NCBI GenBank assembly: GCA_963753595.1
Contig: CAVWCX010000006.1
Coordinates: 1-64,000 of the forward strand
Direction: 5' to 3'
Source: Candidatus Methanoperedenaceae archaeon
GTDB lineage: Archaea > Halobacteriota > Methanosarcinia > Methanosarcinales > Methanoperedenaceae
DNA length: 64,000 nucleotides
This document shows positions 1,026-50,008 of the stretch, in pieces. A program made the position numbers and the translations under genes. Positions within the stretch are counted from its first letter, which is position 1; every line of letters starts with the position of its first letter. The notes below the pieces were generated by a model. The model was not told the DNA's origin, did no database searches, and worked only from the letters and a program-made list of their open reading frames with translations.

Positions 1026-1435
1026 TGGAAGAAGGTATTATAAAAACAGCTCCCGACAGGGAAAAAGCAAAATCTATCTTGAAAATGGTGGAAACCACAT
1101 TGGAAATGATAGACACAATTGATTCAAAGAAATTTTCCTCTCATGTTGTTAAGGAGTATTATGAAGTTGTCCGTGAACTGATTACGGTGATTTTACTTCT
1201 GGATGGATATAAAACACATGGAGAGGGAGCACATAAGAAGTTGATAGAGTATATGGAGAAAAATTATGGGGAATTCAAAGGGCATGAGATCTCCCTCATC
1301 GATGACCTCAGGGTTGTGAGGAACAAGATCGCATATAATGGTTTTTTTGTAACAGATGATTATCTTGAACGAAAAAAGAAAGATATTCTGATGATTATAG
1401 ATAAGCTACGAATAATCATATATAAAAAATTATAA
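1025..1435 (+). CDS. HEPN-like toxin, partner of the MNT
   Basis: TGATG overlap with the MNT gene; helical 136-aa protein with RNKIAY (R-x4-Y variant of the HEPN R-x4-H motif). Confidence 0.7.
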   Translation: MEEGIIKTAPDREKAKSILKMVETTLEMIDTIDSKKFSSHVVKEYYEVVRELITVILLLDGYKTHGEGAHKKLIEYMEKNYGEFKGHEISLIDDLRVVRNKIAYNGFFVTDDYLERKKKDILMIIDKLRIIIYKKL

Positions 1436-1452
1436 TTTTTTAAAAATTAATT

Positions 1453-1486
1453 CCGGATAAAGCTGCCCGCAAACAGCCCTATCCGG
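1453..1486 (-). terminator. hairpin between convergent genes, probable terminator of the cytochrome operon
   Basis: On the minus strand CCGGAUAGGGCUG...CAGCUUUAUCCGG pairs fully using G-U wobbles and is followed by a U-rich tract. Confidence 0.55.
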
Positions 1487-1511
1487 TCACTTCCCCAACT
1501 TCATTGCAAAT

Positions 1512-2780
1512 TTAGTGCCCGTCATTCGGGTAATCGGGATGATCCCTAAGGACTGGCATCCTGTTAACGATCCATCGGTAAACCAATACCTGGATTATGA
1601 TAACTGATATGACTACCAGCACTTCCTTCCAGTAGAAGAGTTCCCCGCGGGGGAGCTGATAATTGAATGTCAGCAATGTCAGGTTGAACCTGTTAAGGAT
1701 TATTCCGATCATCGTCACCGCAGCTGTTACCTGGATAAGTTTAGCGTTCTTCTTCATTACCCCATAATAATACAGGAATGGGACAATTGCAAGGATCGCC
1801 ATCTCAACCAGGAACCAGTGACCTGTTGGCGTATCGAGGTATTTCCATGCGCCTTCATGTGTAATGCTTATCAATCTCATTCCCAGATATGTAAACATGA
1901 CCAGCGATGAGGCTTTCCCGAGGCCGATCGTAACATCATCGATACTTGCAAGATATTCTGGTGATGCCCGTTCCTTAAAGTAGATCGTAGTTAGTTTACT
2001 GACCACTATCATCAGGGCCATCGCAGCTCCTATTGCTGAGATAAGGGCAAGCCACGGCAGGTATGATGTATACCAGAGCGGATGCACCTTACCCGGCGCA
2101 AGAAGGAACATGGCTGACAGAGCTGACTGGTGCAGCGTAGAGAGCATTACTCCGAAGATTGTAAGACCCAGTGTCATGCTCACTGCTATCTTTCGCAGAT
2201 ACCCCTGGTTTAGCCATGCAAGGATCGAAGGGCAGAACTCAAAGAATTGCACCGATAGATACAGGGCTACATGCCAGGCCACAAGGAACATTACTGATGC
2301 TGTCCCGAAGGATATGGCCATTGGATAATATATTCTCCACGGACGGCCAAGGTCTATCATCAGGAATATTACTGCAAACAGGTATCCCAGGAAACCCAGC
2401 AGGATCGCATTCTTGACAATAGGCTGGTATCTCTTAACCCCGAAAATATAAACTCCTGTCCCAATGACAAATCCTGATGCTGAGAACGGAACTCCACTGA
2501 ATAATCCCCATGTCAGGAATAGTCCCCAGGGTTGTTCGTTCGAAGCTTCCGTTACCTGGTCAAGTCCATATATGAACCGCATTGCTATAAGGAATAGACC
2601 CGCAAAGACAATGAGACCTGCACCAATGTTAAGAGGAGTGATGAGTGTCTTCATATATTCTTTAAACGATAGTCCCAAAAATATCTTATCCCTGAGCCAG
2701 TGCGAAATTATCTCTGCTCCGGTCAGTTCATCCCTGGGATACACATGTCTTTCCACAGTTTCGTTTCCAAATTCATTCAT
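1512..2780 (-). CDS. NrfD/HybB/HmcC-family integral membrane quinol-interacting subunit
   Basis: About 10 TM helices; motifs PWGL, DLGRPWR, LSTLHQSAL, HPLW, LNRFN. Confidence 0.9.
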   Translation of the reverse strand: MNEFGNETVERHVYPRDELTGAEIISHWLRDKIFLGLSFKEYMKTLITPLNIGAGLIVFAGLFLIAMRFIYGLDQVTEASNEQPWGLFLTWGLFSGVPFSASGFVIGTGVYIFGVKRYQPIVKNAILLGFLGYLFAVIFLMIDLGRPWRIYYPMAISFGTASVMFLVAWHVALYLSVQFFEFCPSILAWLNQGYLRKIAVSMTLGLTIFGVMLSTLHQSALSAMFLLAPGKVHPLWYTSYLPWLALISAIGAAMALMIVVSKLTTIYFKERASPEYLASIDDVTIGLGKASSLVMFTYLGMRLISITHEGAWKYLDTPTGHWFLVEMAILAIVPFLYYYGVMKKNAKLIQVTAAVTMIGIILNRFNLTLLTFNYQLPRGELFYWKEVLVVISVIIIQVLVYRWIVNRMPVLRDHPDYPNDGH

Positions 2781-3687
2781 GTTTTATATCCTCCTTAGTT
2801 TTTCCCTCATGTCCTTCATGCGGTTTATTATGTGTCGCCATATAGAAACCTCCAAGCAGGGCAGGCCATGTGACAAGCGTTAGATTTACCATTCCAAGGA
2901 AATCCTTGGTCAGTTTCGGAAATGATGTTGTCCCGATATTTCCAGGGAACCCCATTTTCTCAAATGGCAGTTTTGAAATATACAACCAGCCAGTTCCCCC
3001 TGCTTCTGTTTCACCATACACATGGTCGATATATTTATCCGGCTCACCCCATATTCTCTGCTTTGCCATTTTCAACAGGTCTTTTCTCTTTCCGAATTGT
3101 ATGGCTTCAACAGGGCATGCTTCTGCGCAGGCGGGAATGAGACCATCTTTTATCCTCTGGTTGCACATGAAGCATTTCTGTATCTTGGGCTCGAACGCGC
3201 TTGAATATTCGAAGGCCGGGACATAGAATGGACATGCTGTAATGCAATAACGGCATCCGATACACAGTTTTTCATTCCATACAACGGGGCCTTCGTTTGA
3301 TTTTGTCAATGCTGCTACCGGGCACGCTGTAACACATGCCGGTTCGTCGCAATGCATGCACTGGACCTTGCGATATACCGGTTTTCCATCCTCGCCCTCA
3401 AAGCGATTGACAACCGTATATGACTGCACATCTGCAACGTAAGGTTTCCTCTGTTCTTCAAAAACCGAAGTATCTTCAAATGATGTTTTCGCAGGTGGAA
3501 GATCATTCGCCTTGTTACAGGCACCTTCACAACGGCGGCATCCGATGCATCTTGTTGTATCAGTCAGCATACCCAGGCGGTCAGGGTTACCTTCAAAATC
3601 CGTTGCGCCTAGAACGCTTTCGCTGCCCAGGACGCTTGCTGCAACAACTGTTCCGCCGATCTTGAGTAAGTCTCTCCTGTTTATCAT
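2773..3687 (-). CDS. Tat-exported 4x[4Fe-4S] ferredoxin-like subunit (NrfC/HybA/HmcB family)
   Basis: Tat signal NRRDLLK; CIGCRRCEGAC, CMHCDEPACVTACP, CIGCRYCITACP, CFMC...CAEACP; C-terminal TM helix. Confidence 0.92.
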   Translation of the reverse strand: MINRRDLLKIGGTVVAASVLGSESVLGATDFEGNPDRLGMLTDTTRCIGCRRCEGACNKANDLPPAKTSFEDTSVFEEQRKPYVADVQSYTVVNRFEGEDGKPVYRKVQCMHCDEPACVTACPVAALTKSNEGPVVWNEKLCIGCRYCITACPFYVPAFEYSSAFEPKIQKCFMCNQRIKDGLIPACAEACPVEAIQFGKRKDLLKMAKQRIWGEPDKYIDHVYGETEAGGTGWLYISKLPFEKMGFPGNIGTTSFPKLTKDFLGMVNLTLVTWPALLGGFYMATHNKPHEGHEGKTKEDIKHE

Positions 3688-3690
3688 GAT

Positions 3691-4500
3691 CTATCCTCCA
3701 ATTGGTTTATGGCATCCCTCGCATGTATTGCCTGATCGTCCTGCATGATCTTCTGGCACTATAGCCGCTCCTGCAACTCCTTTTGAATGGCAATTAAGAC
3801 AGGTATCATGATAAACTATCTTTGACTCCACGCCTCCATTTGGTATCCCTTTCGGATGGCACCTGTTACATGTATCCCATGTAAGCTGGTGTGGGCGATT
3901 TGGCGCTGAAACTACAGCGGATGTTTTTAACTCACCTGTGTGGCAATTAATGCAGCTTTGCGGGCCGCTGCTGAACTCTCCCGGATGGCAGGAAATGCAT
4001 CTCTCGTGATAAGCAGCCTTCAGGCCCGGTTGGGTCGAATCATGCGGATTTGCCGGACTATCATGGCAATCCTTACAGGCATGGATCTCATCCCCGCTGT
4101 TATGGTGGCATGTATTACAGCTGACCTTATCGCTCATGATCTTATGAAACTCAGTCGCAGGCCCGTATTTGATTGAAAGATACTCTGATTTATTGACAGT
4201 TGGCCATTCATTATTCGAAGCAAGTGTGACCTGCCCGATATTATCCGGCGGTATGGTCACTGTTGCTTCTGAAATATTAGGAGGTGCTGCAACATCAGAA
4301 GTATCAGAAGATGTTAGTAAGATCGCCCCACCCCCGAAGACCAGTGCAAGGGGAATGACGAACGAAACTATTGTTGACCTTCCCATCTTATCCCTGGAGT
4401 TTACCAGTATCCACAGGGCGATAAACCCGAAGCAAAATGCTATAACGATCAGGTATTCGACCCCTTTGACAAACGTCATGAATTCAAGTAGTGTATTCAT
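3691..4500 (-). CDS. membrane-anchored heptaheme cytochrome c (c3-like) with HmcD-like N-terminus
   Basis: 7 CxxCH motifs (CNTCH, CKDCH, CISCH, CINCH, CNRCH, CLNCH, CEGCH); two N-terminal TM helices; TLLEFMTFVKGVEYL at the start. Confidence 0.88.
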   Translation of the reverse strand: MNTLLEFMTFVKGVEYLIVIAFCFGFIALWILVNSRDKMGRSTIVSFVIPLALVFGGGAILLTSSDTSDVAAPPNISEATVTIPPDNIGQVTLASNNEWPTVNKSEYLSIKYGPATEFHKIMSDKVSCNTCHHNSGDEIHACKDCHDSPANPHDSTQPGLKAAYHERCISCHPGEFSSGPQSCINCHTGELKTSAVVSAPNRPHQLTWDTCNRCHPKGIPNGGVESKIVYHDTCLNCHSKGVAGAAIVPEDHAGRSGNTCEGCHKPIGG

Positions 4501-4578
4501 TTTAACTCCTATTTTTATTTATTTCAATTTTTTGTATTTTTTCTTCTGCTATCCTGATTTTATCCAAAATTCCTAATT

Positions 4579-6021
4579 TTATGGCACTCGTATTAACACC
4601 TCACAACAATTGTCCCCGTGTGACAATAATTTCTTAATATCAAGCTGGGCCCGGTTCCCAAAAGCGTGGTTCATTGCCCCCTTAAAAGTTTCCCTTATCG
4701 TATGGCAGATATATTTATCGACTGAATTGCCTTCTGAGACAATATTGCATTTCTTGATTGTATACAGTAGATTTTTCCCATCCGCTTTCCATTCGCTTTC
4801 CCTGTGGAGTTTTAAATCAATTATTTCAAGAGCTTTCTGGAAATTCTGGAATTCCCAGCTTTTTATATTATTCTCTTTTTCATACTCCTGCATCAGGGAT
4901 ACCCCGATCCTTTTTCCCAATGCGGTCAAAGATACAGGTATATCAGGAATGTTCTTTAGCCCTTTTAGGAAAGCCATGAACATTATCAGGTCCTGGTCAA
5001 CCCTGCTGTTACTGATCTTGAGGTTGCTTACTATCTCGTTGATCCTGATTCCCACATCAGGCCTGTGTGTCAACACGACCATATTGGCAGTTGACTTGGC
5101 ATCATACAGGTGGCCGTTCGCTTCAAGAAGTGACACTATGCTTGTTTTTAGTTTATCTATTACCTCTTTGTTCCTGTAATTATGGAACAATATGAGGTTT
5201 TCCCGGTCAACCTCTACCCGGTCCACAACTCTTGAAGTTTCATATACTTCCTTTATCAGGGACAGCATTTCGTTAAGAGGTATTTCCTGGATCGGTTTCT
5301 TGGCAAGCGTTTCTATTGTTATCTCACCCATCGGTACTTTGCCTGAAAGCAGGTCCTCAAAGTAGTTCCTGTGAACTGTTACCATATTGTAATTGCTCAG
5401 GAGATGTCCGTTTATTATTGATTTCCAAAAATCCGGGCGGCTTTTGATGGCCTGGATCACTTCATTCAAACCTCCAAAAGAGGTTATCAGGCTTTCGTAT
5501 CCTTGCTTTTTATTTGATTTTGATAATTCAATCCTGATACCTCCATCAAGATTAAAAACCGAAGTTATCTCAAGCGGAGCATGCTCAGGTGAGTTTTTCA
5601 CAAGATACTGGGCAAGCGTTCTCGCAACAAATCTTATTTTCTGGGGCGAGCCCTTGACTTCTATCAATACCCCTGATGCAGTTGTATCACTATCGCATTT
5701 TAAGGAAAGGTCAACATCCCACTCCAGGTCGCTGAATTTGTGCTGGAGATAACTTTCAAGTTTTCCTATCGAATTTATCAGCATGGGATCTATCAGATCA
5801 TCCAGTACATTGTCCGGGACAAGCAAACCATCGGTTTCGTTGAGCATCCATTTGAACAGCGTATTATCAATTGTGGATATATTCTCAAGTTCACTGTTTT
5901 TTCCAGCCCCATCTATGATCTCTCTTATTGCGGCGCTGAAATTCCCTTTATGTTTTTCAACATAAGGTTCCATCTTTTCTATGCAATCATTGTCAAGAGA
6001 GATATGTCTTGTAACGATCAT
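4579..6021 (-). CDS. RHH + V4R/MetOD1-like protein, paralogue 1
   Basis: N-terminal TRHISL...HKGNFSAAIREII (RHH-like); C-terminal C...ICHTIRETFKG...GDNCCEV; colinear with 6513-7955 and 9822-11258. Confidence 0.8.
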   Translation of the reverse strand: MIVTRHISLDNDCIEKMEPYVEKHKGNFSAAIREIIDGAGKNSELENISTIDNTLFKWMLNETDGLLVPDNVLDDLIDPMLINSIGKLESYLQHKFSDLEWDVDLSLKCDSDTTASGVLIEVKGSPQKIRFVARTLAQYLVKNSPEHAPLEITSVFNLDGGIRIELSKSNKKQGYESLITSFGGLNEVIQAIKSRPDFWKSIINGHLLSNYNMVTVHRNYFEDLLSGKVPMGEITIETLAKKPIQEIPLNEMLSLIKEVYETSRVVDRVEVDRENLILFHNYRNKEVIDKLKTSIVSLLEANGHLYDAKSTANMVVLTHRPDVGIRINEIVSNLKISNSRVDQDLIMFMAFLKGLKNIPDIPVSLTALGKRIGVSLMQEYEKENNIKSWEFQNFQKALEIIDLKLHRESEWKADGKNLLYTIKKCNIVSEGNSVDKYICHTIRETFKGAMNHAFGNRAQLDIKKLLSHGDNCCEVLIRVP

Positions 6022-6056
6022 AATTACCCCACGTTCCCGATCCTTTCGAGATTCAT

Positions 6057-6338
6057 TTACACTTTTCCAAATTGCTCATAGAGAAGTTCTTTCTCCCGTT
6101 TCAATTCGGCTTCCCTGCGCGAAAGGGCGTTCATGGCCTCATTTGCTCTTACTGAAACCGTTATCCTGTTCTTCCTGTCCAACATGTATTCCCGCAGTCC
6201 AACTGCAAGAAAAACCGCCGCTGTGACTGGCAATAAAATGACCCATCCTGTCAGGAAAGCTACAAAACTTTCAGATGGCAGGAAATAGACACTTCCTATC
6301 ACGACACCGGCTGCAACATACCTTTTCCAATAATTCAT
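6057..6338 (-). CDS. small membrane protein (93 aa) with charged coiled-coil-like tail, paralogue of 11353-11520
   Basis: GGTGA SD before ATG 6338; two hydrophobic segments around YFLPSESF; tail EAMNALSRREAELKREKELL. Confidence 0.75.
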   Translation of the reverse strand: MNYWKRYVAAGVVIGSVYFLPSESFVAFLTGWVILLPVTAAVFLAVGLREYMLDRKNRITVSVRANEAMNALSRREAELKREKELLYEQFGKV

Positions 6339-6373
6339 ATGCTTCACCCAATTATGATTATTCAATGCCAATG

Positions 6374-6437
6374 TTAAAAGAATATTTGACAGGATGATAG
6401 CATGGAAAGCCATGAATAGACATACTATGACATAAAA
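6374..6437 (-). promoter_or_regulatory. promoter of the small protein-regulator-Hmc-like unit
   Basis: ttaaaagaatatttga (6374-6389) is identical to 8000-8015; TATGACATA palindrome at 6426 lies at the same 52-bp offset as TATGGCATA at 8052. Confidence 0.55.
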
Positions 6438-6512
6438 GAGGAATGATATGCCATTGAATGGCCTTATGAATGCAATATATGGCAAAATGACAGGATTATT
6501 CTGGAAATAAGG

Positions 6513-7955
6513 TCAGTGCATTCTTATCATCACCTCGCAGAAATTATCTCCATGTGTCAGTAAATGTTTCGCGCACATCTGGGCTTTGTTTCCAAAAGCA
6601 TAACTCAAAGCCCCTTTGAATGTCTCCCTCACAGTATGACAAACGTAAGAATCAAATTCATTTCCATTTCCTGCAATATTACATTTCCTGATAGTGTAGA
6701 GCAGATCCTTTCCCTCCAGTTTCCATTCACTTTCCCTGTGCAGTCTTGAATCGATGTTTTGCAATGCCTGCTGGAAGTTATCCAGAGTCCATGTCTTGAT
6801 AAGATTCTCCTTTTCATATCCCTGCATTAAGGATTTTCCTGTCCTTCTGCCCAGGGATGTCAGGGATATGGGAATATCAGGAATGTCCTTTAATCCTTTT
6901 AAAAATCCAAAAAATACCAGAAGCTCCTGGTCAAGCCTTGTGTTGCTGTTTTTCAAAGTTTCAACAATCTCATTTATTTTTATGCCTACATCAGACCTGT
7001 GGGTCAGTATAATTATGTTGGCCGTTGCCCTGGCATCAAACATATGGCCATTTGCTTCCAGGAGTGAATGACAGCTTTTTCTTATTTTTTCAATAGCTGC
7101 CCTGTCCCTGTAGCTATGGAATAAGATCAAAGTGTCTTTATCGATTTCAACCCTGTCAACTATCTTTGATGTTTCAAAGACCTCTTTCATAATATGGAGC
7201 ATTTCTTTGAGAGGGATTTCCTGGATGGGTTTTTTTGCAAGATTTTCTATTGTGACCTCCCATGCCGGTATTTTACCCTCAAGCATGTCCTCAAAATAAT
7301 TCCTGTGGACAGTGACCATATTATAATTACTTATCAGATGCCTGTTGAAAAGGGATGTCCAGAATATGGGGCGGCTCTTTACGGTCCTGATAAGCCCATC
7401 TGTCTTTCCAAAAAAAGTCTCAAGGCTTTGCAGTGCATCTTTATTATTTGAACCTGATAATTCAACTTTTATACCTTCGTTAATGTTAACGACTGATCTG
7501 ACCTCAAGAGGTGTAATTTTAAGTGAGTTTTTGACTATATACTGCGTAATTAAGCTTGTAATGAATTTTATTTTTTGATGGTCGCCTCTTATCTCCATCA
7601 ATACTTCACCAGGGAAAATATCATTATCACATTTTAATGTGATGAAAATTCCCCACTTAAGTTCCTCGAACCTGCGATTCAGATAACTTTCCAGTTTGTC
7701 CATCGAATTCATCATCACTGGATCTATGAATTCATTTAGTACATCAGAAGGAAGGAGTTTTTCATCTATTTCCTTAAGTATCCAGTTAAATAAGGACTGG
7801 TCTATTGCCGATGAATTGATCCTGGTATCATACTTTTCCGCATGGCAAATCATATCCCTTATTGCAGCGCCGAAATTCCCGCTATGCTTCTCCACATACG
7901 GTTTAAATTTCTCGATATATTCATCTTCAAGGGATATATGCCTTGTAATATTCAT
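6513..7955 (-). CDS. RHH + V4R/MetOD1-like protein, paralogue 2 (stand-alone)
   Basis: TRHISLEDEYIEK...HSGNFGAAIRDMI; NYNMVTVHRNYFED; VCHTVRETFKG...GDNFCEV. Confidence 0.8.
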   Translation of the reverse strand: MNITRHISLEDEYIEKFKPYVEKHSGNFGAAIRDMICHAEKYDTRINSSAIDQSLFNWILKEIDEKLLPSDVLNEFIDPVMMNSMDKLESYLNRRFEELKWGIFITLKCDNDIFPGEVLMEIRGDHQKIKFITSLITQYIVKNSLKITPLEVRSVVNINEGIKVELSGSNNKDALQSLETFFGKTDGLIRTVKSRPIFWTSLFNRHLISNYNMVTVHRNYFEDMLEGKIPAWEVTIENLAKKPIQEIPLKEMLHIMKEVFETSKIVDRVEIDKDTLILFHSYRDRAAIEKIRKSCHSLLEANGHMFDARATANIIILTHRSDVGIKINEIVETLKNSNTRLDQELLVFFGFLKGLKDIPDIPISLTSLGRRTGKSLMQGYEKENLIKTWTLDNFQQALQNIDSRLHRESEWKLEGKDLLYTIRKCNIAGNGNEFDSYVCHTVRETFKGALSYAFGNKAQMCAKHLLTHGDNFCEVMIRMH

Positions 7956-7980
7956 GTTCTTCTTCCCACGTCCTTAATTA

Positions 7981-8063
7981 AATCTATATATTGACATTCT
8001 TAAAAGAATATTTGAGAAGATATTCTGGTTTTCTGTCCCTTTGAGGTTTATTATGGCATAAAA
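7981..8063 (-). promoter_or_regulatory. promoter of paralogue 2
   Basis: 7981-8004 matches 11541-11564 at 23/24 nt; 8000-8015 is identical to 6374-6389; TATGGCATA at 8052. Confidence 0.6.
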
Positions 8064-8110
8064 TGGCAATAAAAAAAGAAAAAGCGTTTTTCCTGATATC
8101 CTATAACATA

Positions 8111-8941
8111 TTATACCACCTTCAGGACATACGTCTTAATCGCTTCCACAAGTACGCTATATGATATCCACAGCATCCATACACAAATTACCAGGAAGAG
8201 CATCGTGAATATTATTTTAGCAAATCCCACGATAAATAGATTATCATTTTTCGTATGTTCTATATTTTCTGGTGCTGCAATTTTTTGGTTTTTCATTGCT
8301 TCTTCATATTCCAGGGGATGCTCATGGCGCATTTCCTCCTCTGGAATATTGCCTGTCAGCCACGAAAGATTCGGGAATTTCTCAAAATGCTCGTCATAGA
8401 AGTGTCCTATAAAGACTGCTATGGAAGCAAGGACAGCCTCCCAGGTATGGAAAAGGCCTGCTATCTGGATAAGCCCGATCGGGAAATATTTCATGGCTTC
8501 AAAAGGCTGATACATTAATAATCCCGTGAAACCCATTATCACTGCTCCGAATCCCGCCCCGAAATATTCGAATTTCTGTTTCCATGAATATCTTCCGAAT
8601 TTGGGATGCTCATCGGAATACCGCAGGTAATACTTTATCTGCTGTTTGAAGTCATCAAGATCCTTGAGATTGAACAAAACATCATAGCGAGGTTTCTCAA
8701 GAATATGATATACAACATGGTATACACTTACCCCGATCATGACAAAACCGGAGATATGATGGATCAATGTCCTGTTATCGAATCCCCCTACCGATGCAAT
8801 CATCCACCGTGACCACCACTCTTCCGGGAACTTCAGGGGAAAACCCGTATACGCAAGCAGTATGAACGATATGAAAAACAATATATGCTGTATGCGCTGA
8901 TTTAAGGTAAACCGTCTGAATTTTAATTCTACCATGTTCAA
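8111..8941 (-). CDS. cytochrome b subunit (FdnI/Ni-Fe hydrogenase b-type, CbcL b-domain-like)
   Basis: RFTLNQRIQH, YTGFP, IHH, YHV, GRYSWKQKFEY, FHTWEA, GHFY, EHPLE; multiple TM helices with His ligands. Confidence 0.88.
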   Translation of the reverse strand: MNMVELKFRRFTLNQRIQHILFFISFILLAYTGFPLKFPEEWWSRWMIASVGGFDNRTLIHHISGFVMIGVSVYHVVYHILEKPRYDVLFNLKDLDDFKQQIKYYLRYSDEHPKFGRYSWKQKFEYFGAGFGAVIMGFTGLLMYQPFEAMKYFPIGLIQIAGLFHTWEAVLASIAVFIGHFYDEHFEKFPNLSWLTGNIPEEEMRHEHPLEYEEAMKNQKIAAPENIEHTKNDNLFIVGFAKIIFTMLFLVICVWMLWISYSVLVEAIKTYVLKVV

Positions 8942-9849
8942 TGCCTCCTTCTTATTTCGAATTTTGATGTGATCCCCATGAAAATCAGTCCGATCGTAAA
9001 GCTAAGTTCAAAAAGGATCATGATTATATAGAAATAAGTCACAAGCTTTTTTACGTCAATGGAAAGCAACTGGACCGACTGTTCTTCATGGATCTTACCT
9101 CCGGTGATAAAGACATTATTTGCGCCCGGATGACAACCTTCTTTTCCACATGTTGACGGCAGATTCTTTGGATTTATTGCCGATTTCGGATCGCTTGCCT
9201 GCCTGGTATCATGGTTTTCATGGCAATCGGAACATGCTGCAAGTAACCTTCCGCCGCTTGCATATGACTTATAATGGAAAGATTTTTTATAAGTGTCAAA
9301 CCTGTCTGTCCTGATACCATAATATAAGGCTTGCATCCTGGTCTGGTTTTCATGGCATTTTGCACATGTCTCGGGCACATTTGCTGAAAATGTGGATGAA
9401 TCAGGGTTTTTTGATGGAAGGATATTATGGACACCATGGCAATCGGTACACGAAGCTGATGTCCTTCCTTCTTTGAGTCTTTGCCAGTGAATGCTTTCTT
9501 GATATACCCGGGTTTCATTCTCATGGCATTTTGCACAAAAGTTCGTGATATTTAAAGGTGAAGGTTTTCCTGTAAAATTCGTATGCATCACATTTATGGA
9601 CACAACACTTCCACTGATTTTCGTATCTCCGCCATGACAATCCGAACAGAGATTTTTGTTGAAATGCACGCTTTCCCGGAATTCATTTACCTCCCGGGAA
9701 TGGCAATGATAACAGGAAATATCTATGTTCTCATCCTGCGCAGATGCGGTCGTCAAAAAGAAAATGACGATCAATGTCAGGACTATTATCTTGCCAATCT
9801 TTACTGTGTTAAAATCTGGTTTTATTGAATTCGTATTACCACCTCGCAA
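8938..9849 (-). CDS. multiheme cytochrome c (6 CxxCH + 1 CxxxxCH) with signal peptide and C-terminal TM
   Basis: CYHCH, CSDCH, CAKCH, CTDCH, CAKCH, CSDCH, CGKEGCH; ATGA overlap with the cytochrome b gene; start codon uncertain (no in-frame ATG before the signal peptide). Confidence 0.85.
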   Translation of the reverse strand: MRGGNTNSIKPDFNTVKIGKIIVLTLIVIFFLTTASAQDENIDISCYHCHSREVNEFRESVHFNKNLCSDCHGGDTKISGSVVSINVMHTNFTGKPSPLNITNFCAKCHENETRVYQESIHWQRLKEGRTSASCTDCHGVHNILPSKNPDSSTFSANVPETCAKCHENQTRMQALYYGIRTDRFDTYKKSFHYKSYASGGRLLAACSDCHENHDTRQASDPKSAINPKNLPSTCGKEGCHPGANNVFITGGKIHEEQSVQLLSIDVKKLVTYFYIIMILFELSFTIGLIFMGITSKFEIRRRH

Positions 9850-11258
9850 AAATCATCACCTTTAGATAATAATTTTTGAACTTCCAATACCGCTTTATTC
9901 CTGAAAGCATAGTTCATTGCCCCAATAAAAGTCTCTCTTATAGTATGGCAGATACATTTATTGGGATCATTCCGGGTAATGCTGCAATTACTCACACGAT
10001 AATTCAGGTTATTCCCGTCAAGAGCCCATTCGCTTTCCCTGTGGAGCTTTGAGTCAATATTTTCAAAAGCATTTTTGAATTTTTCCAGGTTCCATTCTTT
10101 TATTTTATTTTCCAATTCATATTCCTTCATAATAGATGTACCAAGTCTTCTTCCCAGAATAGAAAGAGATAAAGGAATATCGGGAATGTCCTTCAGGCCG
10201 TTCAGGTAAGTAATGAACATCAATAATTCCTGATCGAATTTATTTGTGCTGTTTTTCAAATTGCCTATTAATTCATTGATCTTTAAACCGATATCAGGCC
10301 TGTGTGTCAGCATTATCATGTTTGCTGTTGACTTTCCATCATATAAATGGCCGTTTGATTCAAGCAGGGTCAAAAAGATCTTTTTTAATGTATCCACAGC
10401 TTCTTTTGTCCTGTAATTATGGAAAATGACCAGTGTATCATTTTCAATCTCGATCCTGTCAACAACCCTGGAGTCCTCATAAACTCTTTTTAATAGAGCA
10501 AGCAGATCACTAAGAGGTATTTCATTGATCGGTTTTTTTGCGAGAAATTCTATCGTCACTTCCCCCCTCGGTATATTATTAGAAAGTATATCCTCAAAAG
10601 AGTTTCTATGGATCGTGACCATATTGTAATTGCTAAGTTGATGACTTTTGATGATCGGGATCCAGAAATCAGGACGGCCCTTTACTGCCCCGAATATTGC
10701 GTTCATTCCCCCGAAAAAAGTGATCAAGCTGTCTTGTGACTCTGTTTTATCTGACCGTGATAACTCAACTTTTATGCACTCGTTAAAATTGGCGACTGAC
10801 CGCACCTGCAGCTGTGAGCGGGTGAGTGAATTTTTCACGAGGAACCGGGACACAATGCCCGCAATGAATTTTATTTTCCCGGGTGTTCCTCTTATTGTCA
10901 AAAGGACTTCGGTTGGAAAATCGTCGTTATCACATTTCAAACTAAGGTTTACCCCCCACCCAAGTTCTGTTAACCTCTGGTTAATATTTTCTTCAAGTTT
11001 TCCCATCGAAATTATCAACATCGGATTGATAAATTTATCAAGAACATCATCAGGAACCAGTATGTCATCGATCTCCTGAAGCATCCAATTGAACAATGAA
11101 GTATCTATGGCTGATGAATTCATGGCCGGATTATATTTTCCGGCAATGCTTATCATATCCCTTAATGCAGCCCCCATATTCCCATTATGTTTTTCCATAT
11201 ATGGGTCCATCTTTTTCAGGTATTCATCGTCAATGGAAATGTGTCTTGAAATGTTCAT
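9822..11258 (-). CDS. RHH + V4R/MetOD1-like protein, paralogue 3
   Basis: SRHISIDDEYLKK...HNGNMGAALRDMI; NYNMVTIHRNSFED; ICHTIRETFIG...GDDFCEV. Confidence 0.8.
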   Translation of the reverse strand: MNISRHISIDDEYLKKMDPYMEKHNGNMGAALRDMISIAGKYNPAMNSSAIDTSLFNWMLQEIDDILVPDDVLDKFINPMLIISMGKLEENINQRLTELGWGVNLSLKCDNDDFPTEVLLTIRGTPGKIKFIAGIVSRFLVKNSLTRSQLQVRSVANFNECIKVELSRSDKTESQDSLITFFGGMNAIFGAVKGRPDFWIPIIKSHQLSNYNMVTIHRNSFEDILSNNIPRGEVTIEFLAKKPINEIPLSDLLALLKRVYEDSRVVDRIEIENDTLVIFHNYRTKEAVDTLKKIFLTLLESNGHLYDGKSTANMIMLTHRPDIGLKINELIGNLKNSTNKFDQELLMFITYLNGLKDIPDIPLSLSILGRRLGTSIMKEYELENKIKEWNLEKFKNAFENIDSKLHRESEWALDGNNLNYRVSNCSITRNDPNKCICHTIRETFIGAMNYAFRNKAVLEVQKLLSKGDDFCEVVIRIQ

Positions 11259-11279
11259 GATCCTCTTAAAATGTTAAAG

Positions 11280-11309
11280 AGATCCTGCATGAAATTTCAC
11301 GCAGGATCT
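11280..11309 (-). terminator. 30-bp near-perfect intra-operon hairpin
   Basis: agatcctgcatgaaatttcacgcaggatct; the single mismatch becomes a G-U pair on the minus (sense) strand. Confidence 0.6.
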
Positions 11310-11352
11310 TTTACCCCCGTCTCTCTTCATTTCTATGTTGGTCATGTAGTTC

Positions 11353-11520
11353 TCAGGCGCTTGCTACTGATTGCATCATATACACAAAGATAGATGCTGG
11401 TATCAGGAACAATCCTCCTGCAAAGGCGGCAAGGAATGTTTCTGCCGGGAGATAATATGCTGCTGTCATGAAAGCTGCCGCAGCTATTGCAGCTATTATA
11501 TATTTGGTTTTATTTTCCAT
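11353..11520 (-). CDS. small membrane protein, 55 aa (absent from the ORF track)
   Basis: Hand translation MENKTKYIIAAIAAAAFMTAAYYLPAETFLAAFAGGLFLIPASIFVYMMQSVASA; GAGGTG SD; shares YxLPxE[ST]F...G...LxP with 6057-6338. Confidence 0.78.
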   Translation of the reverse strand: MENKTKYIIAAIAAAAFMTAAYYLPAETFLAAFAGGLFLIPASIFVYMMQSVASA

Positions 11521-11540
11521 ATTTCATAACACCTCAATAC

Positions 11541-11575
11541 AATCTATATATTGACATTATTAAATAATCAGTTGA
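11541..11575 (-). promoter_or_regulatory. promoter of the small protein-regulator-CbcL-like unit
   Basis: TATA-like TTTAATAA on the minus strand, followed by TGTCAATATATAGATT shared with 7981-7996. Confidence 0.6.
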
Positions 11576-11899
11576 TAATAAAATGTTGGGAAAAGAGTAT
11601 AAGCCGCCATATCCGATTTTTCGTGGGAACAAAACACCAATAAATAAAATAGCGTGTATTATATAATTTAAATAAGTTCATATTACTAAAAGATTGGAAT
11701 TATAATTGCATGAATTCTATATATTGGCTTAATAAGTCCATTAATTTTTTAAATATGGATTATTGAAGCCATGGGATATGAGGAATTGCCATAAATTTTT
11801 TCATCGGACATCGGTTAAGGAATTCAACACATGTAAATTTTTCACATGAGGTTTTAATGGCCATATCCTTCATACGCATGTCCATAAATCACTATAATT

Positions 11900-14080
11900 A
11901 TGATACGCACAAGATTTGGGCTTGCACTATTCGTAATGATTATATTAACCGGGCAGGCAATGGCTGCCGATGTAAAAGTATTTCCTCCAGGTTATTTAGC
12001 TAACGAGGGAGGAACTTTTGATTTGAATGTAACAATAGACCCGCAGGGAGCAGCAATTGCAGGTGCGCAATTAAATATCGGGTTTGACCAGACAAAGATC
12101 AGAATAAATAAAATTACTGAAGGGAACTTATTCAAACAGAATGGAGCAGGCACTTTCTTTGCAAACGGCATTATAAATAATTCAACAGGTACTGTGATAA
12201 ATATTTTTAGTGTAGTAATTGGCAGGACGAATGTATCAAATCCTGGCACATTCATTATTATAAATGCCACAGTCATTGGTTCATCAGGTACATCCGGAAT
12301 AAATCTTTCAAATGTCAAGATCAGCAATTCTGACGCCCGGCCTGTACCTTTAGTATTATATAACGCAAGTATGACCATTAACAGCCCGCCAGTACTTTCA
12401 CAGATCGGTGATAAGAAGATTTTTGAAGGCCAGGCCCTGAATTTCACTATATCTGCAACCGATAATGATCCAGGTATCCTTGTATATTCAGCTTCAAACC
12501 TGCCGGCTGGGGCTACTTTTGACCCCGCTTCACAAACTTTCACCTTGATACCTGATTTCACACGATCCGGCATTTATCAGAATGTACATTTCGAAGTTTC
12601 AGATGGAACGTTTACGGATTTTGAAAATATCACAATAACAGTGAATAAGCGTTCAAATATTATTGTAACGCCATCAAGCAAGATAGTGAACACCGGGCAG
12701 ACATTCAGCATTAACATATCTATTGACCCAATGGGTAATCCGATCGCAGGGGCAGAGCTTTCTCTTTTGTATGACGGATCGCTCCTTAACGTGAATAACG
12801 TTACAGAGGGAACTCTTTTCAAACAAAACGGATCAAGCACGATCTTTAACGGTGGTGTAATAGAGAATCCATCAGGAAAAGTAAACAATATTTATGGATC
12901 GGTCCCTGGTCCTTATAATGTTACAAATGAGGGGACCTTCATTGTTATTGACTTGACGGCAATTGGTTCATCAGGAACACCCATGGTCAATATTTCGGAC
13001 ATAATGATAATCGACCAGGCCGGGAATCCGGTGGCGTTCAATCTGATCAATGGAAGCGTATTAATAAACAGTCCGCCAGTGCTCGATACAATTGGAAATA
13101 GAATCATTGGGGAAGGCCAGGCACTTACTTTTACTTTATCAGCGACTGATGTAAATGGAAATGCGCTTACATATTCCGCAAAAAATCTTCCTTCTGGCGC
13201 GGTGTTTGTTCCTGCAAACAGGACCTTCTTGTGGACACCAGACTTCACACAATCGGGCAATTATCCGGGTATTCATTTTGAAGTATCCGATGGAAGTGTG
13301 ATGGATAGCGAAAATGTTACGATAACTGTGAATAACGTCAACAGGGCACCCACATTTACTTCTTATCCTGGCAATGGCTCATCATTTAACGAAACAGAGG
13401 TTATTCCAATCAGTATTATAGCAAATGATCCTGATAACGACACGCTTGGCTACATAATAAGATTGGATGGCAAACTGGTGAGTACGGCGGCAAATTATCT
13501 ATGGATTACTAACTATTCCAGTTCAGGCAATCACAATATTGAAATAATAGTAAACGACGGGACAGTATCTGTTACGAGGACAACAATGGTTTATATCACA
13601 GAATTGCCCGTGCAAACGTCTATTAATATTATTAAGAATCCAGGTTTTGAATCAGGAAAGTCTTCATGGACGTTCTATACGAACGGCAAGGGAACATTCG
13701 GTACAGCATCTGGCTATCAAGGAAATAATTCTGCCAGACTTAATTTGATCAGTATTGTTTCTCCCCAGAACATCCAGTTATACCAGAAAGGGATAACACT
13801 GGAACCAAACACTCCCTATCGGCTCAGTTTTGCGGCTTATTCGACTACAGGACATGATCTTTCGGTTTTAATACTGAAACATGGTTCACCTTATACTAAT
13901 TATGGATTATCGAATTATGTGGCAAATCTTGGCACTTCATGGGGCAATTATTCAGTACAGTTTACAACATCCGGATTTTCAGGAAATGTAACCGACGCTC
14001 GTTTGATGTTCATGCTTGCAGGCTTTGCGGCAGCAGGAGACAGCTACTATATCGATGATATACGATTGGAGAAGATCTAA
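11900..14080 (+). CDS. secreted scaffold: cohesin-Ig-cohesin-Ig-Ig-CBM4_9-like
   Basis: Signal peptide (GQAMA/A); two cohesin-like units (IDP.G..IAGA.L...D......TEG.LF); He_PIG/cadherin-like NSPPVL..IG...SATD...NLP.GA repeats; C-terminal NPGFESG...YYIDDI. Confidence 0.8.
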   Translation: MIRTRFGLALFVMIILTGQAMAADVKVFPPGYLANEGGTFDLNVTIDPQGAAIAGAQLNIGFDQTKIRINKITEGNLFKQNGAGTFFANGIINNSTGTVINIFSVVIGRTNVSNPGTFIIINATVIGSSGTSGINLSNVKISNSDARPVPLVLYNASMTINSPPVLSQIGDKKIFEGQALNFTISATDNDPGILVYSASNLPAGATFDPASQTFTLIPDFTRSGIYQNVHFEVSDGTFTDFENITITVNKRSNIIVTPSSKIVNTGQTFSINISIDPMGNPIAGAELSLLYDGSLLNVNNVTEGTLFKQNGSSTIFNGGVIENPSGKVNNIYGSVPGPYNVTNEGTFIVIDLTAIGSSGTPMVNISDIMIIDQAGNPVAFNLINGSVLINSPPVLDTIGNRIIGEGQALTFTLSATDVNGNALTYSAKNLPSGAVFVPANRTFLWTPDFTQSGNYPGIHFEVSDGSVMDSENVTITVNNVNRAPTFTSYPGNGSSFNETEVIPISIIANDPDNDTLGYIIRLDGKLVSTAANYLWITNYSSSGNHNIEIIVNDGTVSVTRTTMVYITELPVQTSINIIKNPGFESGKSSWTFYTNGKGTFGTASGYQGNNSARLNLISIVSPQNIQLYQKGITLEPNTPYRLSFAAYSTTGHDLSVLILKHGSPYTNYGLSNYVANLGTSWGNYSVQFTTSGFSGNVTDARLMFMLAGFAAAGDSYYIDDIRLEKI

Positions 14081-14359
14081 CCAGCCGAGATGTGGGGCAT
14101 CTTAAGACTCAGGCGACTGAGGATAAATTGGCCATGGTTTGTCCCAACCGCAGTAGGATAGTGGAAAATGTGCTATACTCAAGTTCGAAAATAACCGAAA
14201 TTTCCATGAAAAAATAAAACCGCAGATAAGCGTACTATTAACACTTTTGGTCAACTTTATCTTAACGGCCTGGGGTTGCGACCCCATACCCCAACGGAAG
14301 CACCGACTATAGCAATTAAAAAATTTTTTAGCCAATAAGGTTGAAGTCAATGATTTTAA

Positions 14360-14854
14360 TTATGGTTTCCAAACCTTAAGCCATTCTACTTTTTCGAAAT
14401 CGCTATCATTTGTAATAATATTCACGATATTATATGACTTGGCAAATGAAACAATATAAGCGTCTGTTGCCAAAAGAGAATATCTATGTGAAATGATCAA
14501 TGATTCTGCCAGTGTGTTGATCTTTTCTTTCAAAATGATGAAACCCACATCGAATAACCTATCTATTTCATTCCAGCAAATATCCAAACTCTGGATAGTA
14601 TTCTTATCCGTTTTTAAAATTCTTATAGCATCGCCTGTATTTAACGCAAAACCTCTTTCAATTACTTCTGCGATCATTAGCCTGTGTAACAATTCATTCA
14701 ATACAATAGTGGGTATATATCCTTCAATTTTTCCAGATTCAACTTCATGAATAAGTTGCGTGCAGGGATTTCCATACTTTGGGTGATCAAGAGCTGAATA
14801 AATAAAAATATTGGTATCAAATAAAAGTTTCTCACCTGGATTTATCTGTATCAT
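14360..14854 (-). CDS. vapC: PIN-domain VapC toxin
   Basis: FDTNIFIY, E, LATDAYI, TNDSDF acidic PIN motifs. Confidence 0.88.
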   Translation of the reverse strand: MIQINPGEKLLFDTNIFIYSALDHPKYGNPCTQLIHEVESGKIEGYIPTIVLNELLHRLMIAEVIERGFALNTGDAIRILKTDKNTIQSLDICWNEIDRLFDVGFIILKEKINTLAESLIISHRYSLLATDAYIVSFAKSYNIVNIITNDSDFEKVEWLKVWKP

Positions 14855-14855
14855 T

Positions 14856-15041
14856 TTAGATTAACTCATCACTTTGGGCGATCTCTTCGATCATATCAGG
14901 ATCGTTTAGCTTTAAAGCTCCCTGAAATTCCTTTGCCTTTGATATTGATGTAATGCTAATTTCAACTTCTTCTCCTTCTTTTAAATCCAATTTGTTAATG
15001 GGTTTTAGCATAGCGTTTCTATATACAGCTTTTATTTTCAT
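14856..15041 (-). CDS. AF2212/DUF104-type antitoxin
   Basis: IKAVYRNAMLKPINKLDLKEGEEVEI; directly upstream of vapC. Confidence 0.85.
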   Translation of the reverse strand: MKIKAVYRNAMLKPINKLDLKEGEEVEISITSISKAKEFQGALKLNDPDMIEEIAQSDELI

Positions 15042-15414
15042 AATATATAAAACAACTTCAAGACGTAAAAATATATTGTTAGTGTTTATCTAAAAATTAG
15101 ATGGCGAAATTTTGAAAAACAAACTCCCGATAAAAGATCACATTTTCCAGCATCGGGACAAAAGTATCCGGATAATTCGACTATTAGCGAACATGAGTTC
15201 GTCAAATAGTGAAGCCAATTCGAGTTTTGACCACAAAAGATTTAATATAGTTCAAGATATAAGAGTACTCAAACCCATTAAAATCGATGGGCAGGAGGAA
15301 AAGGTACGAAGATAAGTTCAATGAGGATATATAATTTGTATTTTATCGGTTCAGGCCGATTATCCAAATACTTTAATATATGTACAGAGCATAGATATCA
15401 TCGTATCGAATGAC

Positions 15415-15485
15415 GGGTGGTGCGACTGAATAGCCGATAATTCGGCGGGTACGGCTTCCCTAACGGGGCTGAAGTTGTTTCACTC
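15415..15485 (+). promoter_or_regulatory. structured 5' leader (predicted three-way junction)
   Basis: P1 15415-26/15474-85, P2 15433-46, P3 15452-71 with a cUAACg loop; lies between the TATA-like tttaatat (15372-79) and ATG 15529. Confidence 0.4.
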
Positions 15486-15528
15486 AAATAATAATATGGA
15501 GGCTCTTCAAAAGGAGAATGGAATAATT

Positions 15529-18500: not shown

Positions 18501-18600
18501 GACAGAAGCTGTGGCAGCAGTCAGAAACTACCTGCATGGCGGCGGAATTTCCAAGGCAGATGCTGTAGCAGTAGTCAGGGCATACTTACACCCTACTTAG
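15529..18600 (+). CDS. large Thr/Val/Asn-rich cell-surface glycoprotein/adhesin with Ig-like repeats and a C-terminal dockerin-like motif
   Basis: Signal peptide (GPASA/A); three ~135-140-aa repeats; Big_1/Big_2-like domains; many NxT/S sequons; WDADSNGIISKTEA...GISKADA at the end. Confidence 0.8.
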   Translation: MTKKLNSFKNIFSVLMALLLLGIAAGPASAAITVTGGGNNIIAGAPSQAVNTINITSGAAADLSTTISIAVPSGLTFNNTPSDLFIGTIGVVMVGTPVVTSTLITIPVTQSSAAGNSVLVNGIKLDVSPTATVGSNSLTITSLGGATTGSVAVTKPTNTHTSKPLAKGQNGQAINDVVVASVTTGDIGTGTYINLTIPSDVGVTFNTSVSTSGLITTTGTGIKNIAVTPYTVSAIINATLNATETVTFTTGVQLNVTSTATNFSYNVITTAVNTSSQAVTTVVQNNDTYVVPTNTHTSKALVKGQTGQAINAIVVQSVVTNDIGNNTYINLTIPSGVGVTFNTSVSTSGLILTNNSAGLRSIAVTANTVSAILNASLTATDNVTFTTGIQLNVTGTPTNFSYSVTTTAASAGSQAVTTTVQNNDTFVAPRITYAGDTVYLDLDGQTGKAISAVVVQSVVTNDIGNNTYINLTIPSDVGVTFDTSVSTSGLILTNNSAGLRSVTVTANTVSAIINASLTATDNVTFTTGIKINVTSSATAGTVNFTVKTTAANTGSQEVSQEYTTAGITKTIVTASTINSPDDVTSLGLGNITTLTWTVTNATSSSNFGGKRVNFATNGTPSSLNISYGTTSSAGTVSVNFTAPATTGTYNVTATIDGTTVSDVVNITVIAGSPTKLAIIPDTPKLAPTGVATITVKAQDASGNNVTTGPGVNDSVRLAVGGDAFVTSTNPVNMSNGTATFTVQKSTPGSTGLTALDENGTSPILNYATGTQVFTLDIGSIVLTPSTTSLAVNGSVATLSVQLYDVNGNPLALPGQSITITSSNTSLATVGTSPATSNANGIAVSNLTSKNVTGGTVSVNATITNQTGVTLYSNVSVSLVPATAAPTLTTITVTPATASVVVNGTVNFTATSKDQFLANMTGIIITWNSSNSTVGTINSTGVFTALANGTTTITATNGSVTSNLVTVTVTSISVLPPAVAAWDADSNGIISKTEAVAAVRNYLHGGGISKADAVAVVRAYLHPT
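15998..17200 (+). repeat. three intragenic tandem repeats (~410-420 bp)
   Basis: 16468-16696 recurs almost identically at +420; the first copy is more diverged. Confidence 0.85.
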
Positions 18601-18619
18601 ACAAAGCAACAAAATTTAA

Positions 18620-18659
18620 GTTGGTATTCCAAAAGGAATATCAACAACTTTATTTTTTT
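18620..18659 (+). terminator. hairpin + T-tract terminator
   Basis: gttggtattcc-aaaa-ggaatatcaac followed by tttattttttt. Confidence 0.65.
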
Positions 18660-22087: not shown

Positions 22088-22091
22088 TTTT

Positions 22092-50001: not shown

Positions 50002-50008
50002 TAAAGTC

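Follow-up and report, generated by a model that had tools for sequence, protein, structure and literature searches.

The stretch of DNA analysed here, called the window, comprises 64,000 nucleotides (nt) of contig C6 from a Candidatus Methanoperedenaceae archaeon (genome of 2.89 Mb, 92% complete), which the names of nearly identical public proteins assign to Candidatus Methanoperedens. Between positions 1512 and 11520 it holds ten genes, every one on the minus strand (Table 1). They form two modules, in each of which a gene for a small membrane peptide (pepA, pepB) and a gene for a protein of about 480 amino acids (aa), here called R (R1, R3), precede a multihaem cytochrome (MHC_A, MHC_B) and the quinol-interacting membrane subunit(s). 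An earlier note on this DNA had described this order, with a further R paralogue (R2) standing alone between the modules, and had proposed that it reflects a sensing or regulatory system for respiratory electron transfer. The arrangement was found as described: the cassette is repeated, is conserved in the genus Methanoperedens and heads two different menaquinol:cytochrome c modules. The observation is thus real and stronger than had been stated, and the regulatory interpretation is plausible.

Table 1. Genes and other features of the array, listed in the direction of transcription
Feature	Position	Strand	Description
Promoter block upstream of pepA	11537..11579	-	diverged copy of the shared element; TATA-like ATATATAG
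pepA	11353-11520	-	55 aa, two-helix membrane hairpin, YYLPAETF loop, no cytoplasmic tail
RNA hairpin between pepA and R1	11280..11309	-	stable hairpin, then U-rich stretch; z -4.25, 0/200 shuffles fold as well
R1	9822-11258	-	478 aa; RHH-like N-terminus, two alpha/beta domains, V4R-like C-terminal domain (predicted)
MHC_A	8938-9849	-	membrane-anchored multihaem cytochrome c, NapC/NirT-like; PF03264, E 1.7e-11
Cytochrome b	8111-8941	-	FdnI/HydC-type; PF01292
T-run after cytochrome b, then shared block upstream of R2	7972..8085	-	pattern match 7991-8014, 2 mismatches
R2	6513-7955	-	stand-alone 480-aa paralogue; promoter of peptide type
pepB upstream region	6339..6512	-	shared block 6365-6388, 0 mismatches; TGNCAT-type repeats
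pepB	6057-6338	-	93 aa, two-helix hairpin (YFLPSESF), charged cytoplasmic tail RKNRITVSV..., strand plus helix
R3	4579-6021	-	480-aa paralogue, 35 nt after pepB; orthologues form a well-supported clade
MHC_B	3691-4500	-	7-haem cytochrome c (7 CxxCH), HmcD-like N-terminal membrane helix
HmcB-like	2773-3687	-	periplasmic four-cluster Fe-S protein, Tat signal; 375 bits, cut-off 420
HmcC/NrfD-like	1512-2780	-	quinone-interacting membrane subunit; 386.8 bits, cut-off 550; PF03916
Terminator-like hairpin and T-run	1453-1486	-	ends the second operon

The gene array and its respiratory modules

The first module consists of MHC_A and a cytochrome b that belongs to the PF01292 family (65.2 bits, cut-off 30.1). 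In the translation of MHC_A 6 CxxCH motifs and 1 CGKEGCH (CxxxxCH) motif were read, i. e. it is a 7-haem cytochrome. In the second module the HmcB and HmcC models were the best-scoring NCBIfam families for the two distal genes, yet both scores remained below the equivalog cut-offs, and the N-terminus of MHC_B reached 24.7 bits with the HmcD model (cut-off 34). No HmcE- or HmcF-like genes were found in 1512-11575, and the cytochrome is not a 16-haem HmcA.

R1, R2 and R3 share 56-59% pairwise identity. Three paralogues had been noticed in the window; the genome holds a fourth full-length R (R4) on contig C28, with a third peptide gene, pepC (102 aa), 188 nt downstream. No cytochrome genes were found near R4-pepC within the 16 kb of C28 that were inspected. 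Two further R relatives of the genome, about 345 aa in length, are without the C-terminal domain. One of them (343 aa, G000:C7:176204-177752) consists of the RHH-like N-terminus and the two middle domains; on the opposite strand before it lies a gene for a 62-aa two-helix membrane protein that has no sequence kinship to pepA, pepB or pepC.

The small membrane peptides

As read from the sequences, pepA, pepB and pepC each encode two hydrophobic helices that are connected by a short loop, Y-x-(L/Y)-P-x-E-x-F. PepB and pepC continue into a charged tail of the form RK(N/H)RI.VS.KP.EA.KA.ARRE.EL..EKE, and pepA has little beyond its membrane helices. The peptides are real genes. Among their orthologues dN/dS (the ratio of nonsynonymous to synonymous substitution rates) was 0.07-0.50 in 38 of 45 pairs, the other 7 pairs having saturated dS, and the pepA orthologues gave values of 0.09-0.40. 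When the genome was translated in six frames, nine places with the motif Y.[LYF]P.E.F were obtained; only three of the nine lie within small membrane open reading frames (ORFs), and each of these three adjoins a full-length R gene. The glutamate of the YxLPxE signature given in the earlier note is not invariant, being replaced by glycine in some pepB orthologues. Invariant or nearly so are the proline and the phenylalanine of the loop, one tyrosine and one proline of the second transmembrane helix (TM2).

A profile of 22 peptides matched 185 proteins at E 0.01 or better among 5.8 billion, and none of the best 120 of these 185 carried a Pfam domain or a functional name. Matches to the profile were present in 38 of 46 genomes of the genus. 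The Atlas search with pepB returned nothing above 0.84.

Variants of the peptide were seen as well. Two genes of the same genome (G000:C24:38048-38329 and G000:C30:15239-15523) encode 93-94-aa single-helix proteins with TM2 and the charged tail as in pepB and pepC, without the first helix and the loop motif. They lie away from R and the cytochromes; by eye, an integrase-like gene neighbours one of them and a KaiC-like ATPase the other. In an R-peptide-MHC_A lineage (L054, L113, L114; G056:C16, G002:C88) the peptide is split over two adjacent genes, one for a 74-83-aa hairpin with the loop motif and one for a protein of 102-130 aa in which TM2 and the tail follow a new N-terminus. Such a split occurs in at least three genomes (G019, G022, G056), perhaps also in G002.

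Conservation of the array in Methanoperedens

To place the array in the genus, 20 loci around R genes from 16 genomes were inspected and their ORFs classed against the ten proteins of the window. The full ten-gene order, pepA-R-MHC_A-cyt b-R-pepB-R-MHC_B-HmcB-HmcC, was present in 8 of the 20 loci (G001, G004, G009, G011, G013, G021, G023, G024), and in G003 and G008 the two halves of the array are on separate contigs or places. The short order peptide-R-MHC_A-cyt b was found in 10 loci and peptide-R-MHC_B-HmcB-HmcC in 12. Across the loci the spacing is tight: R and the multihaem cytochrome range from overlapping to 110 nt apart, the structural genes overlap or are separated by 1-3 nt, and the gap between peptide and R is mostly 2-101 nt. 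Deviating orders also exist. Two peptides lie between R and R3 in G014 and G018, and in G013 and G021 an R gene is followed by two peptides, with the cytochromes absent.

A second survey started from the peptides and was thus independent of the choice of R loci. Of the 30 peptide places with the best scores (46 genomes), inspected with flanks of 1.5 kb, 26 had an R match of more than 80 residues, one had a shorter match and three had none. When these three (L115-L117) were extended to 7-10 kb, they turned out to be lone pepC-type genes. Among G001-G024, 20 genomes have an R of the peptide-linked clade (best E 1e-180 or lower) and 19 of these 20 also have peptides; of the four genomes without such an R, three are also without a peptide. 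As the genomes are kin, these counts are descriptive and not statistical. The fourth genome is G019, where two peptide genes lie directly upstream of MHC_A-cyt b and are preceded by 48 aa that remain of the R N-terminus. This ORF (L113, G019:C13, 3795-3941, minus strand) holds solely the RHH-like N-terminus and is either a deletion remnant or a stand-alone mini-RHH.

The two-gene head, which is the same at both modules of the window, is not universal in the genus. G017, which is 99% complete, has R3-MHC_B-HmcB-HmcC, and the peptide profile finds nothing in the whole genome. In three lineages (G002, G006, G022) the order is R, peptide, MHC_A-cyt b, the peptide lying directly upstream of the cytochrome genes with gaps of 23-58 nt. 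Such an order would suit a peptide that is a subunit or assembly factor of the cytochrome b or NrfD-type complexes, with the regulator R simply co-located and not in contact with it. The two peptide genes in front of MHC_A-cyt b in G019, where R is so strongly reduced, and the nearly all-membrane pepA point in the same direction. However, R4-pepC pairs and lone pepC genes are found far from any cytochrome module, the NrfD module of G017 exists without a peptide, and the commonest order puts the 1.4-kb R gene between the peptide and the structural genes. The tailless pepA, the peptide-less genome, the lone peptides and the peptide abutting a cytochrome gene leave room for a role in the complexes; all in all we consider it unlikely. 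Because its linkage to R is closer than its linkage to the structural genes, the peptide is most likely a partner of R that resides in the membrane.

Domains and fold of the R proteins

The R family is small; a search of 1.84 billion proteins gave 93 cluster representatives (E 0.001 or better). For R1-R3 no local Pfam or NCBIfam model reached its threshold. All 120 listed homologues, one of them 99% identical, have PF27313 (AF_0136_C, Pfam 38.1) as their precomputed Pfam entry. A literature search on AF0136/AF_0136 yielded only unrelated accession numbers.

An AlphaFold model of R, built from 36 sequences, has a mean pLDDT (predicted local distance difference test) of 77. It shows an N-terminal segment in which helices 11-23 and 28-40 follow an extended stretch, then two alpha/beta domains and a C-terminal alpha/beta domain. 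The C-terminal domain (residues 332-480) has a pLDDT of 58-89 per ten-residue block, with residues 331-370 at 58-67. Structure comparison matched it to Bet3 (2j3w_E: Z 11.1, root mean square deviation (rmsd) 4.0, 138 aligned residues; Bet3 overall Z 10-11), to the phenol sensor DmpR (6iy8_B: Z 10.5, rmsd 3.5, 129 aligned), to the phenol-sensor domains of MopR and PoxR (Z 9.2-10.0; MopR 5kbh_B, Z 10.0), to H-NOX (Z about 9) and to the V4R protein MJ1460 (2oso: Z 8.9, 128 aligned), at a sequence identity of 7-16%. The C-terminal domain as modelled is thus of the Bet3/V4R-type alpha/beta fold. Three of its cysteines, C425, C439 and C473, are invariant in 29 R sequences that reach down to 26% identity.

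In the designation RHH-V4R/MetOD1 of the earlier note, where RHH stands for ribbon-helix-helix, the part V4R/MetOD1 holds only at the level of the predicted fold, and no window protein matches either Pfam family. Neither the V4R profile hidden Markov model (HMM; PF02830, cut-off 31 bits) nor MetOD1 (PF18546, cut-off 23.8 bits) matched the window R proteins. In a six-frame scan of the genome at E 1 the V4R HMM had a sole match, C12:36719-36898. Single distant R relatives match V4R or MetOD1 below the threshold (17.8 bits; MetOD1 in 1 of 36).

At the other end, no part of R is conserved more widely in the family than the first 40 residues. RHH_1 (PF01402, cut-off 20.5 bits) matched none of the three window R proteins at E 0.1; it is the Pfam family that R members match most often below the threshold (3 of 36, best E 0.075). 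Aligned to six RHH_1 proteins of the same genome, the R N-terminus gave an hhalign probability of 72% over 35 columns, and its in-register alignment to the NikR RHH had E-values of 0.31-0.81, which are not significant. The support for an RHH is entirely below significance, and the N-terminus is weakly consistent with this fold, which is not proof of it. The putative RHH strand, (S/T)(R/K)HIS, is nearly identical across the four R paralogues of the genome, which would fit one common operator.

The middle part (residues 46-325, about 280 residues) was predicted with a pLDDT of 90 when modelled alone. Foldseek returned no PDB match at E 0.001 or better for it, and its VIA-align comparison with 48,161 chains gave middling scores (best Z 8.2). 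The first domain of this part matched BcsD (Z 6.0-6.9), the second Bet3-family subunits (Z 6.1-7.5) and H-NOX (Z 6.1-6.8). R may hold three Bet3-like modules, which we take as a lead and not as a finding; hhalign found no similarity among the three domains (probability under 1%).

With such folds, R could also be a cytoplasmic ligand-binding or maturation protein for the respiratory complexes, handling for instance a cofactor, a quinone or a lipid, with a structural or protein-binding role for its RHH-like part. According to the titles of the structure entries, Bet3, V4R and H-NOX folds bind lipids, haem and small hydrophobic molecules. R has no significant match to a DNA-binding domain, and the 280 residues of its middle part are without a clear solved relative. 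Yet it is the N-terminal 40 residues, in register with RHH proteins, that are conserved most widely. Moreover, R2 stands alone with its own promoter, R4 lies away from the complexes, four paralogues per genome are more typical of regulators, and relatives of R are operonic with histidine kinases and receivers. In view of these points a role outside transcription appears quite unlikely.

Gene contexts of R outside the cassette

A quick tree of 72 R sequences was calculated, with support values from the SH-aLRT (Shimodaira-Hasegawa-like approximate likelihood ratio test) alone. The 55 R copies linked to peptides and cytochromes, all from Methanoperedens, form one clade on a long stem (SH-aLRT 100). 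Within it the orthologues of R3 and those of R4 are supported groups, whereas R1 and R2 were not separated. Outside this clade no peptide was found beside R in the loci examined.

In a deep-branching Methanoperedens subgroup a PAS/GAF histidine kinase directly follows the R-like gene in 5 of 6 copies. Two of these kinases have a MASE3 membrane sensor, some of the loci also contain receiver proteins, and one contains KaiC. A subgroup of R at 40% identity adjoins genes that look Hdr-like by eye. Such neighbours, signaling proteins as well as energy-conserving complexes, are in keeping with a regulatory role.

In other families of the order, R lies beside genes for universal stress proteins (USP), the names being read by eye from the translations. 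At one such locus (L058, G034:C106, 1579-15873) the R homologue is convergent to the end of an Rnf-like operon; a cytochrome b and an 8-haem cytochrome lie upstream, and a USP gene and an Mrp-like operon adjoin R. Here, too, the names Rnf, USP and Mrp come from reading the translations by eye.

A promoter element shared by peptide genes and R2

The upstream regions of pepA, R2 and pepB belong to one direct-repeat family (D6) and are homologous over about 47 nt. In the aligned orthologous upstream regions one block beside a TATA-like box is strongly conserved and the rest of the intergenic region has diverged. The block reads roughly TCAAAT(A/G)NTNNTTTTAANATTGNCATTA(T/G)ATA, and the consensus of the shared element is approximately TCAAATATTCTTTTAANATTGNCAT. 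The whole genome was scanned with a position weight matrix (PWM), the training set of which excluded pepC and the exact places at R2 and pepB. The top five places belonged to pepA, R2, pepB (two overlapping places) and pepC; after these the scores fall (24.1 to 22.7, then 19.7). The block of pepA, conserved in 11 orthologous upstream regions, gave the top match genome-wide, at 11542.

A second scan used the pattern CAAATATTCTTTTANNNTTGNCAT and allowed up to 3 mismatches. In the 2.89 Mb of the genome it had 3 matches, at pepB (0 mismatches), pepC (0) and R2 (2); the reversed pattern as the control had 2 matches. In 654,851 nt from 40 loci of relatives there were 30 matches. For 29 of them a script found the next gene directly downstream to be a peptide gene (25 matches) or one of the R2 type (4). 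The 30th was reassigned by hand to an R2 with an over-extended ORF call. Thus the 24-nt block is specific to the regions upstream of peptide genes and R2, both in this genome and in the loci of relatives, and the promoter motifs seen in the earlier note are confirmed and sharpened to one defined block.

Four units carry the element: pepA-R1-MHC_A-cyt b, R2 alone, pepB-R3-MHC_B-HmcB-HmcC, and pepC. In the window a T-run follows cytochrome b, with a gap of 155 nt to R2 and another of 174 nt from R2 to pepB. Because of the gaps and the placing of T-runs and promoters, each unit is probably a single transcript. An RNA run (X1, 13% of the sampled words) covered 1300-12000 with short contigs of related strains, 305 of 602 of them at 90-95% likeness, and these held no usable starts, ends or junction-spanning pieces. 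The hairpin in the gap after pepA could reduce the share of transcripts that run on into R1. G004 and G008, the two closest relatives, retain it with compensatory changes, and 4 other lineages lack it.

Further signals lie upstream of pepB. An imperfect palindrome, AGGCCAT-N3-ATGGCAT, with half-sites of 7 nt and one mismatched position, is found at 6448-6464, and the aligned orthologous upstream regions of pepB likewise contain conserved ATGNCAT-N3-ATGNCAT palindromes. The TGNCAT sites at pepB are enriched and not unique, since the genome has 16 windows, this region included, in which 160 nt contain at least 5 sites. Upstream of R4 the region differs. It contains AAAACGG repeats (G000:C28, about 7700-7839) that are conserved upstream of R4 orthologues (L043, L044, L047, L050 and others), and on sequence grounds these repeats are a candidate operator distinct from the block of the peptide genes.

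The cassette could have arisen by repeated duplication, in which case the shared motif might be nothing but an inherited core promoter (TFB-recognition element (BRE) and TATA box with their surroundings) and would not reflect co-regulation by R. The homology of the three upstream regions over about 47 nt, the TATA-like box within the block and the high but not unique TGNCAT clustering at pepB would agree with this. The 16-nt part upstream of the TATA-like box, however, is kept at 0-3 mismatches across paralogues and all sampled species with diverged flanks, the proteins of these paralogues are only about 56-60% identical, and the block occurs nowhere else in the genome. We therefore consider inheritance of a core promoter a very unlikely explanation.

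R as a possible sensor regulator of the electron-exit operons

A possible interpretation is that the R proteins act on these operons as sensor transcription factors and that the peptide is their membrane partner; we would give this an even chance of being correct. The sensing or regulatory system proposed in the earlier note gains from the RHH-like/V4R-like architecture, from the specific promoter element and from the distant relatives that are linked to histidine kinases. R would then represent a branch, expanded in Methanoperedens, of a family of archaeal sensor regulators in the cytoplasm, with an N-terminal RHH for DNA binding, two alpha/beta domains and a C-terminal Bet3/V4R-like sensing domain with the three invariant cysteines. 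As an RHH dimer it would bind the shared promoter element next to the TATA-like box, and the element would drive the four units named above. The V4R-like domain could sense, via its cysteines or a bound hydrophobic ligand, a redox- or quinone-related signal of the cytoplasm or the membrane. By this, R would set its own level and the level of both menaquinol:cytochrome c oxidoreductases. The peptide, made first in each peptide-headed unit, would pass information from the membrane to R or hold R at the membrane.

The role given to the peptide is the weakest part of the interpretation, and a contact between peptide and R appears doubtful. A complex prediction for R3 and the pepB tail (residues 46-93) scored 0.00 twice and had no controls, so that it speaks neither for nor against binding.

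Several of the findings weigh against this interpretation as a whole. On the side of the peptide these are the two single-helix relatives of the tail-bearing peptides, neither of which is near R, the peptide-less G017, the three lone pepC-type genes, and the order R-peptide-cytochrome in three lineages. Further, pepA has no cytoplasmic tail, so that a tether mediated by the tail would not be general. On the side of R, no profile model reaches its threshold, V4R included, and the RHH assignment is below significance. As for the promoters, the blocks are paralogous and their likeness is partly due to descent, and R4 has a different upstream region.

Taken further, the peptide and the RHH/V4R-like protein could form a minimal membrane-to-DNA signaling pair, in which the peptide, from within the membrane, reports the state of the menaquinone pool or the load of the exit complexes and captures or releases its cognate R, which in turn would act on the shared operator. 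We think that this is not likely to be the case. If it were, three to four such pairs per genome would govern the choice between the cytochrome b and the NrfD route and hence the use of nitrate, metal oxides and electrodes.

The acceptors to which Methanoperedens can transfer the electrons of methane are nitrate, oxides of iron and manganese, and electrodes. The locus offers a candidate for the control of these electron exits, with four putative regulator paralogues, a co-inherited membrane peptide and a 24-nt element. At the same time a domain reading, though a predicted one, is given to a protein family that is otherwise merely catalogued (PF27313, 'AF_0136_C').

Neighbouring genes

Just past the end of the second operon, at 1025-1435 on the plus strand, lies a 136-aa ORF that looks HEPN-like by eye and is preceded by a 182-aa ORF; the two may be a toxin-antitoxin-type pair. 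Divergent from pepA, the region 11900-28925 encodes several large secreted proteins with cohesin, CBM_4_9, Ig-like and PKD domains. Farther along the window are a hybrid histidine kinase (49973-52465), a CheB-CheR-PAS fusion (54604-57531) and a protein of the prismane/CO-dehydrogenase family (62044-63921).

Comparison with known systems

The structural genes correspond to the b-type-cytochrome and NrfD-type menaquinone:cytochrome c oxidoreductase clusters of the Methanoperedenaceae, and different menaquinol:cytochrome c modules were reported to be expressed with different acceptors (Leu et al. 2020, PMC7327174). Ouboter et al. (2024, PMC10874420) list for a related strain a cluster, Metp_01713-22, in which the ten genes stand in the same order; its expression was raised on electrodes, and its baseline on nitrate was high. 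Five of its genes, Metp_01716-18 and Metp_01721-22, are termed 'unknown proteins' there. By gene order and number alone, Metp_01716-18 fit R3, pepB and R2, and Metp_01721-22 fit R1 and pepA. The accessible part of PMC10874420 gives these five genes no domains, family, promoter element or role. In our literature search, which left most subscription journals outside, no paper was found in which these genes are given domains, a promoter element, a role or a function, and no regulator of these modules was named. The view of the earlier note that the system had not been described needs to be softened; its complete novelty is reduced, because the genes are already in print as unknowns. The slow return to nitrate respiration after growth on electrodes has been ascribed to unknown regulation (Wissink et al., PMC13748539).

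Of known respiratory complexes, the Hmc complex of Desulfovibrio is the one whose models give the best scores for the HmcB- and HmcC-like subunits, below the equivalog cut-offs; it has the 16-haem HmcA, HmcE and HmcF, all of which the module in the window is without. The FdnI/HydC-type cytochrome b beside a multihaem cytochrome presumably resembles CbcL of Geobacter. In CbcL both parts are fused, whereas they are separate genes in the array.

Among regulators, NikR-type RHH proteins resemble R in an N-terminal strand-helix-helix of about 40 residues that is followed by a ligand-binding domain, both of them putative in R, and the N-terminus of R aligns in register, below significance, with residues 2-39 of NikR. 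The sensor of NikR is an ACT-like nickel-binding domain; the sensor part of R would be V4R-like instead. The aromatic-sensor (V4R-containing) domains of XylR, DmpR, MopR and PoxR, Bet3 of the TRAPP complex and H-NOX share the predicted fold of residues 332-480, but the partner domains are different from those of R, i. e. sigma-54 AAA+ activators in the DmpR type and TRAPP subunits for Bet3.

By architecture, the nearest characterised regulator is MsvR of Methanothermobacter and Methanosarcina (PMC3729527). Both MsvR and, as predicted, R combine an archaeal DNA-binding domain with a C-terminal V4R-type domain that has three conserved cysteines. According to the accessible part of that paper, the cysteines make DNA binding of MsvR redox-sensitive and MsvR regulates its own promoter. 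The differences are considerable. MsvR binds DNA with a helix-turn-helix, in place of the RHH-like N-terminus of R; it has about 250 aa, whereas R has 480 aa with two extra alpha/beta domains; and the spacing of the cysteines is not the same. The peptide that is linked to R has no counterpart mentioned for MsvR in that part of PMC3729527. No helix-turn-helix was found in R, and its cysteine domain is missed by the V4R HMM, which yet detects the one canonical V4R protein of the genome. Hence R is not a member of the MsvR family, though by analogy it may work like MsvR.

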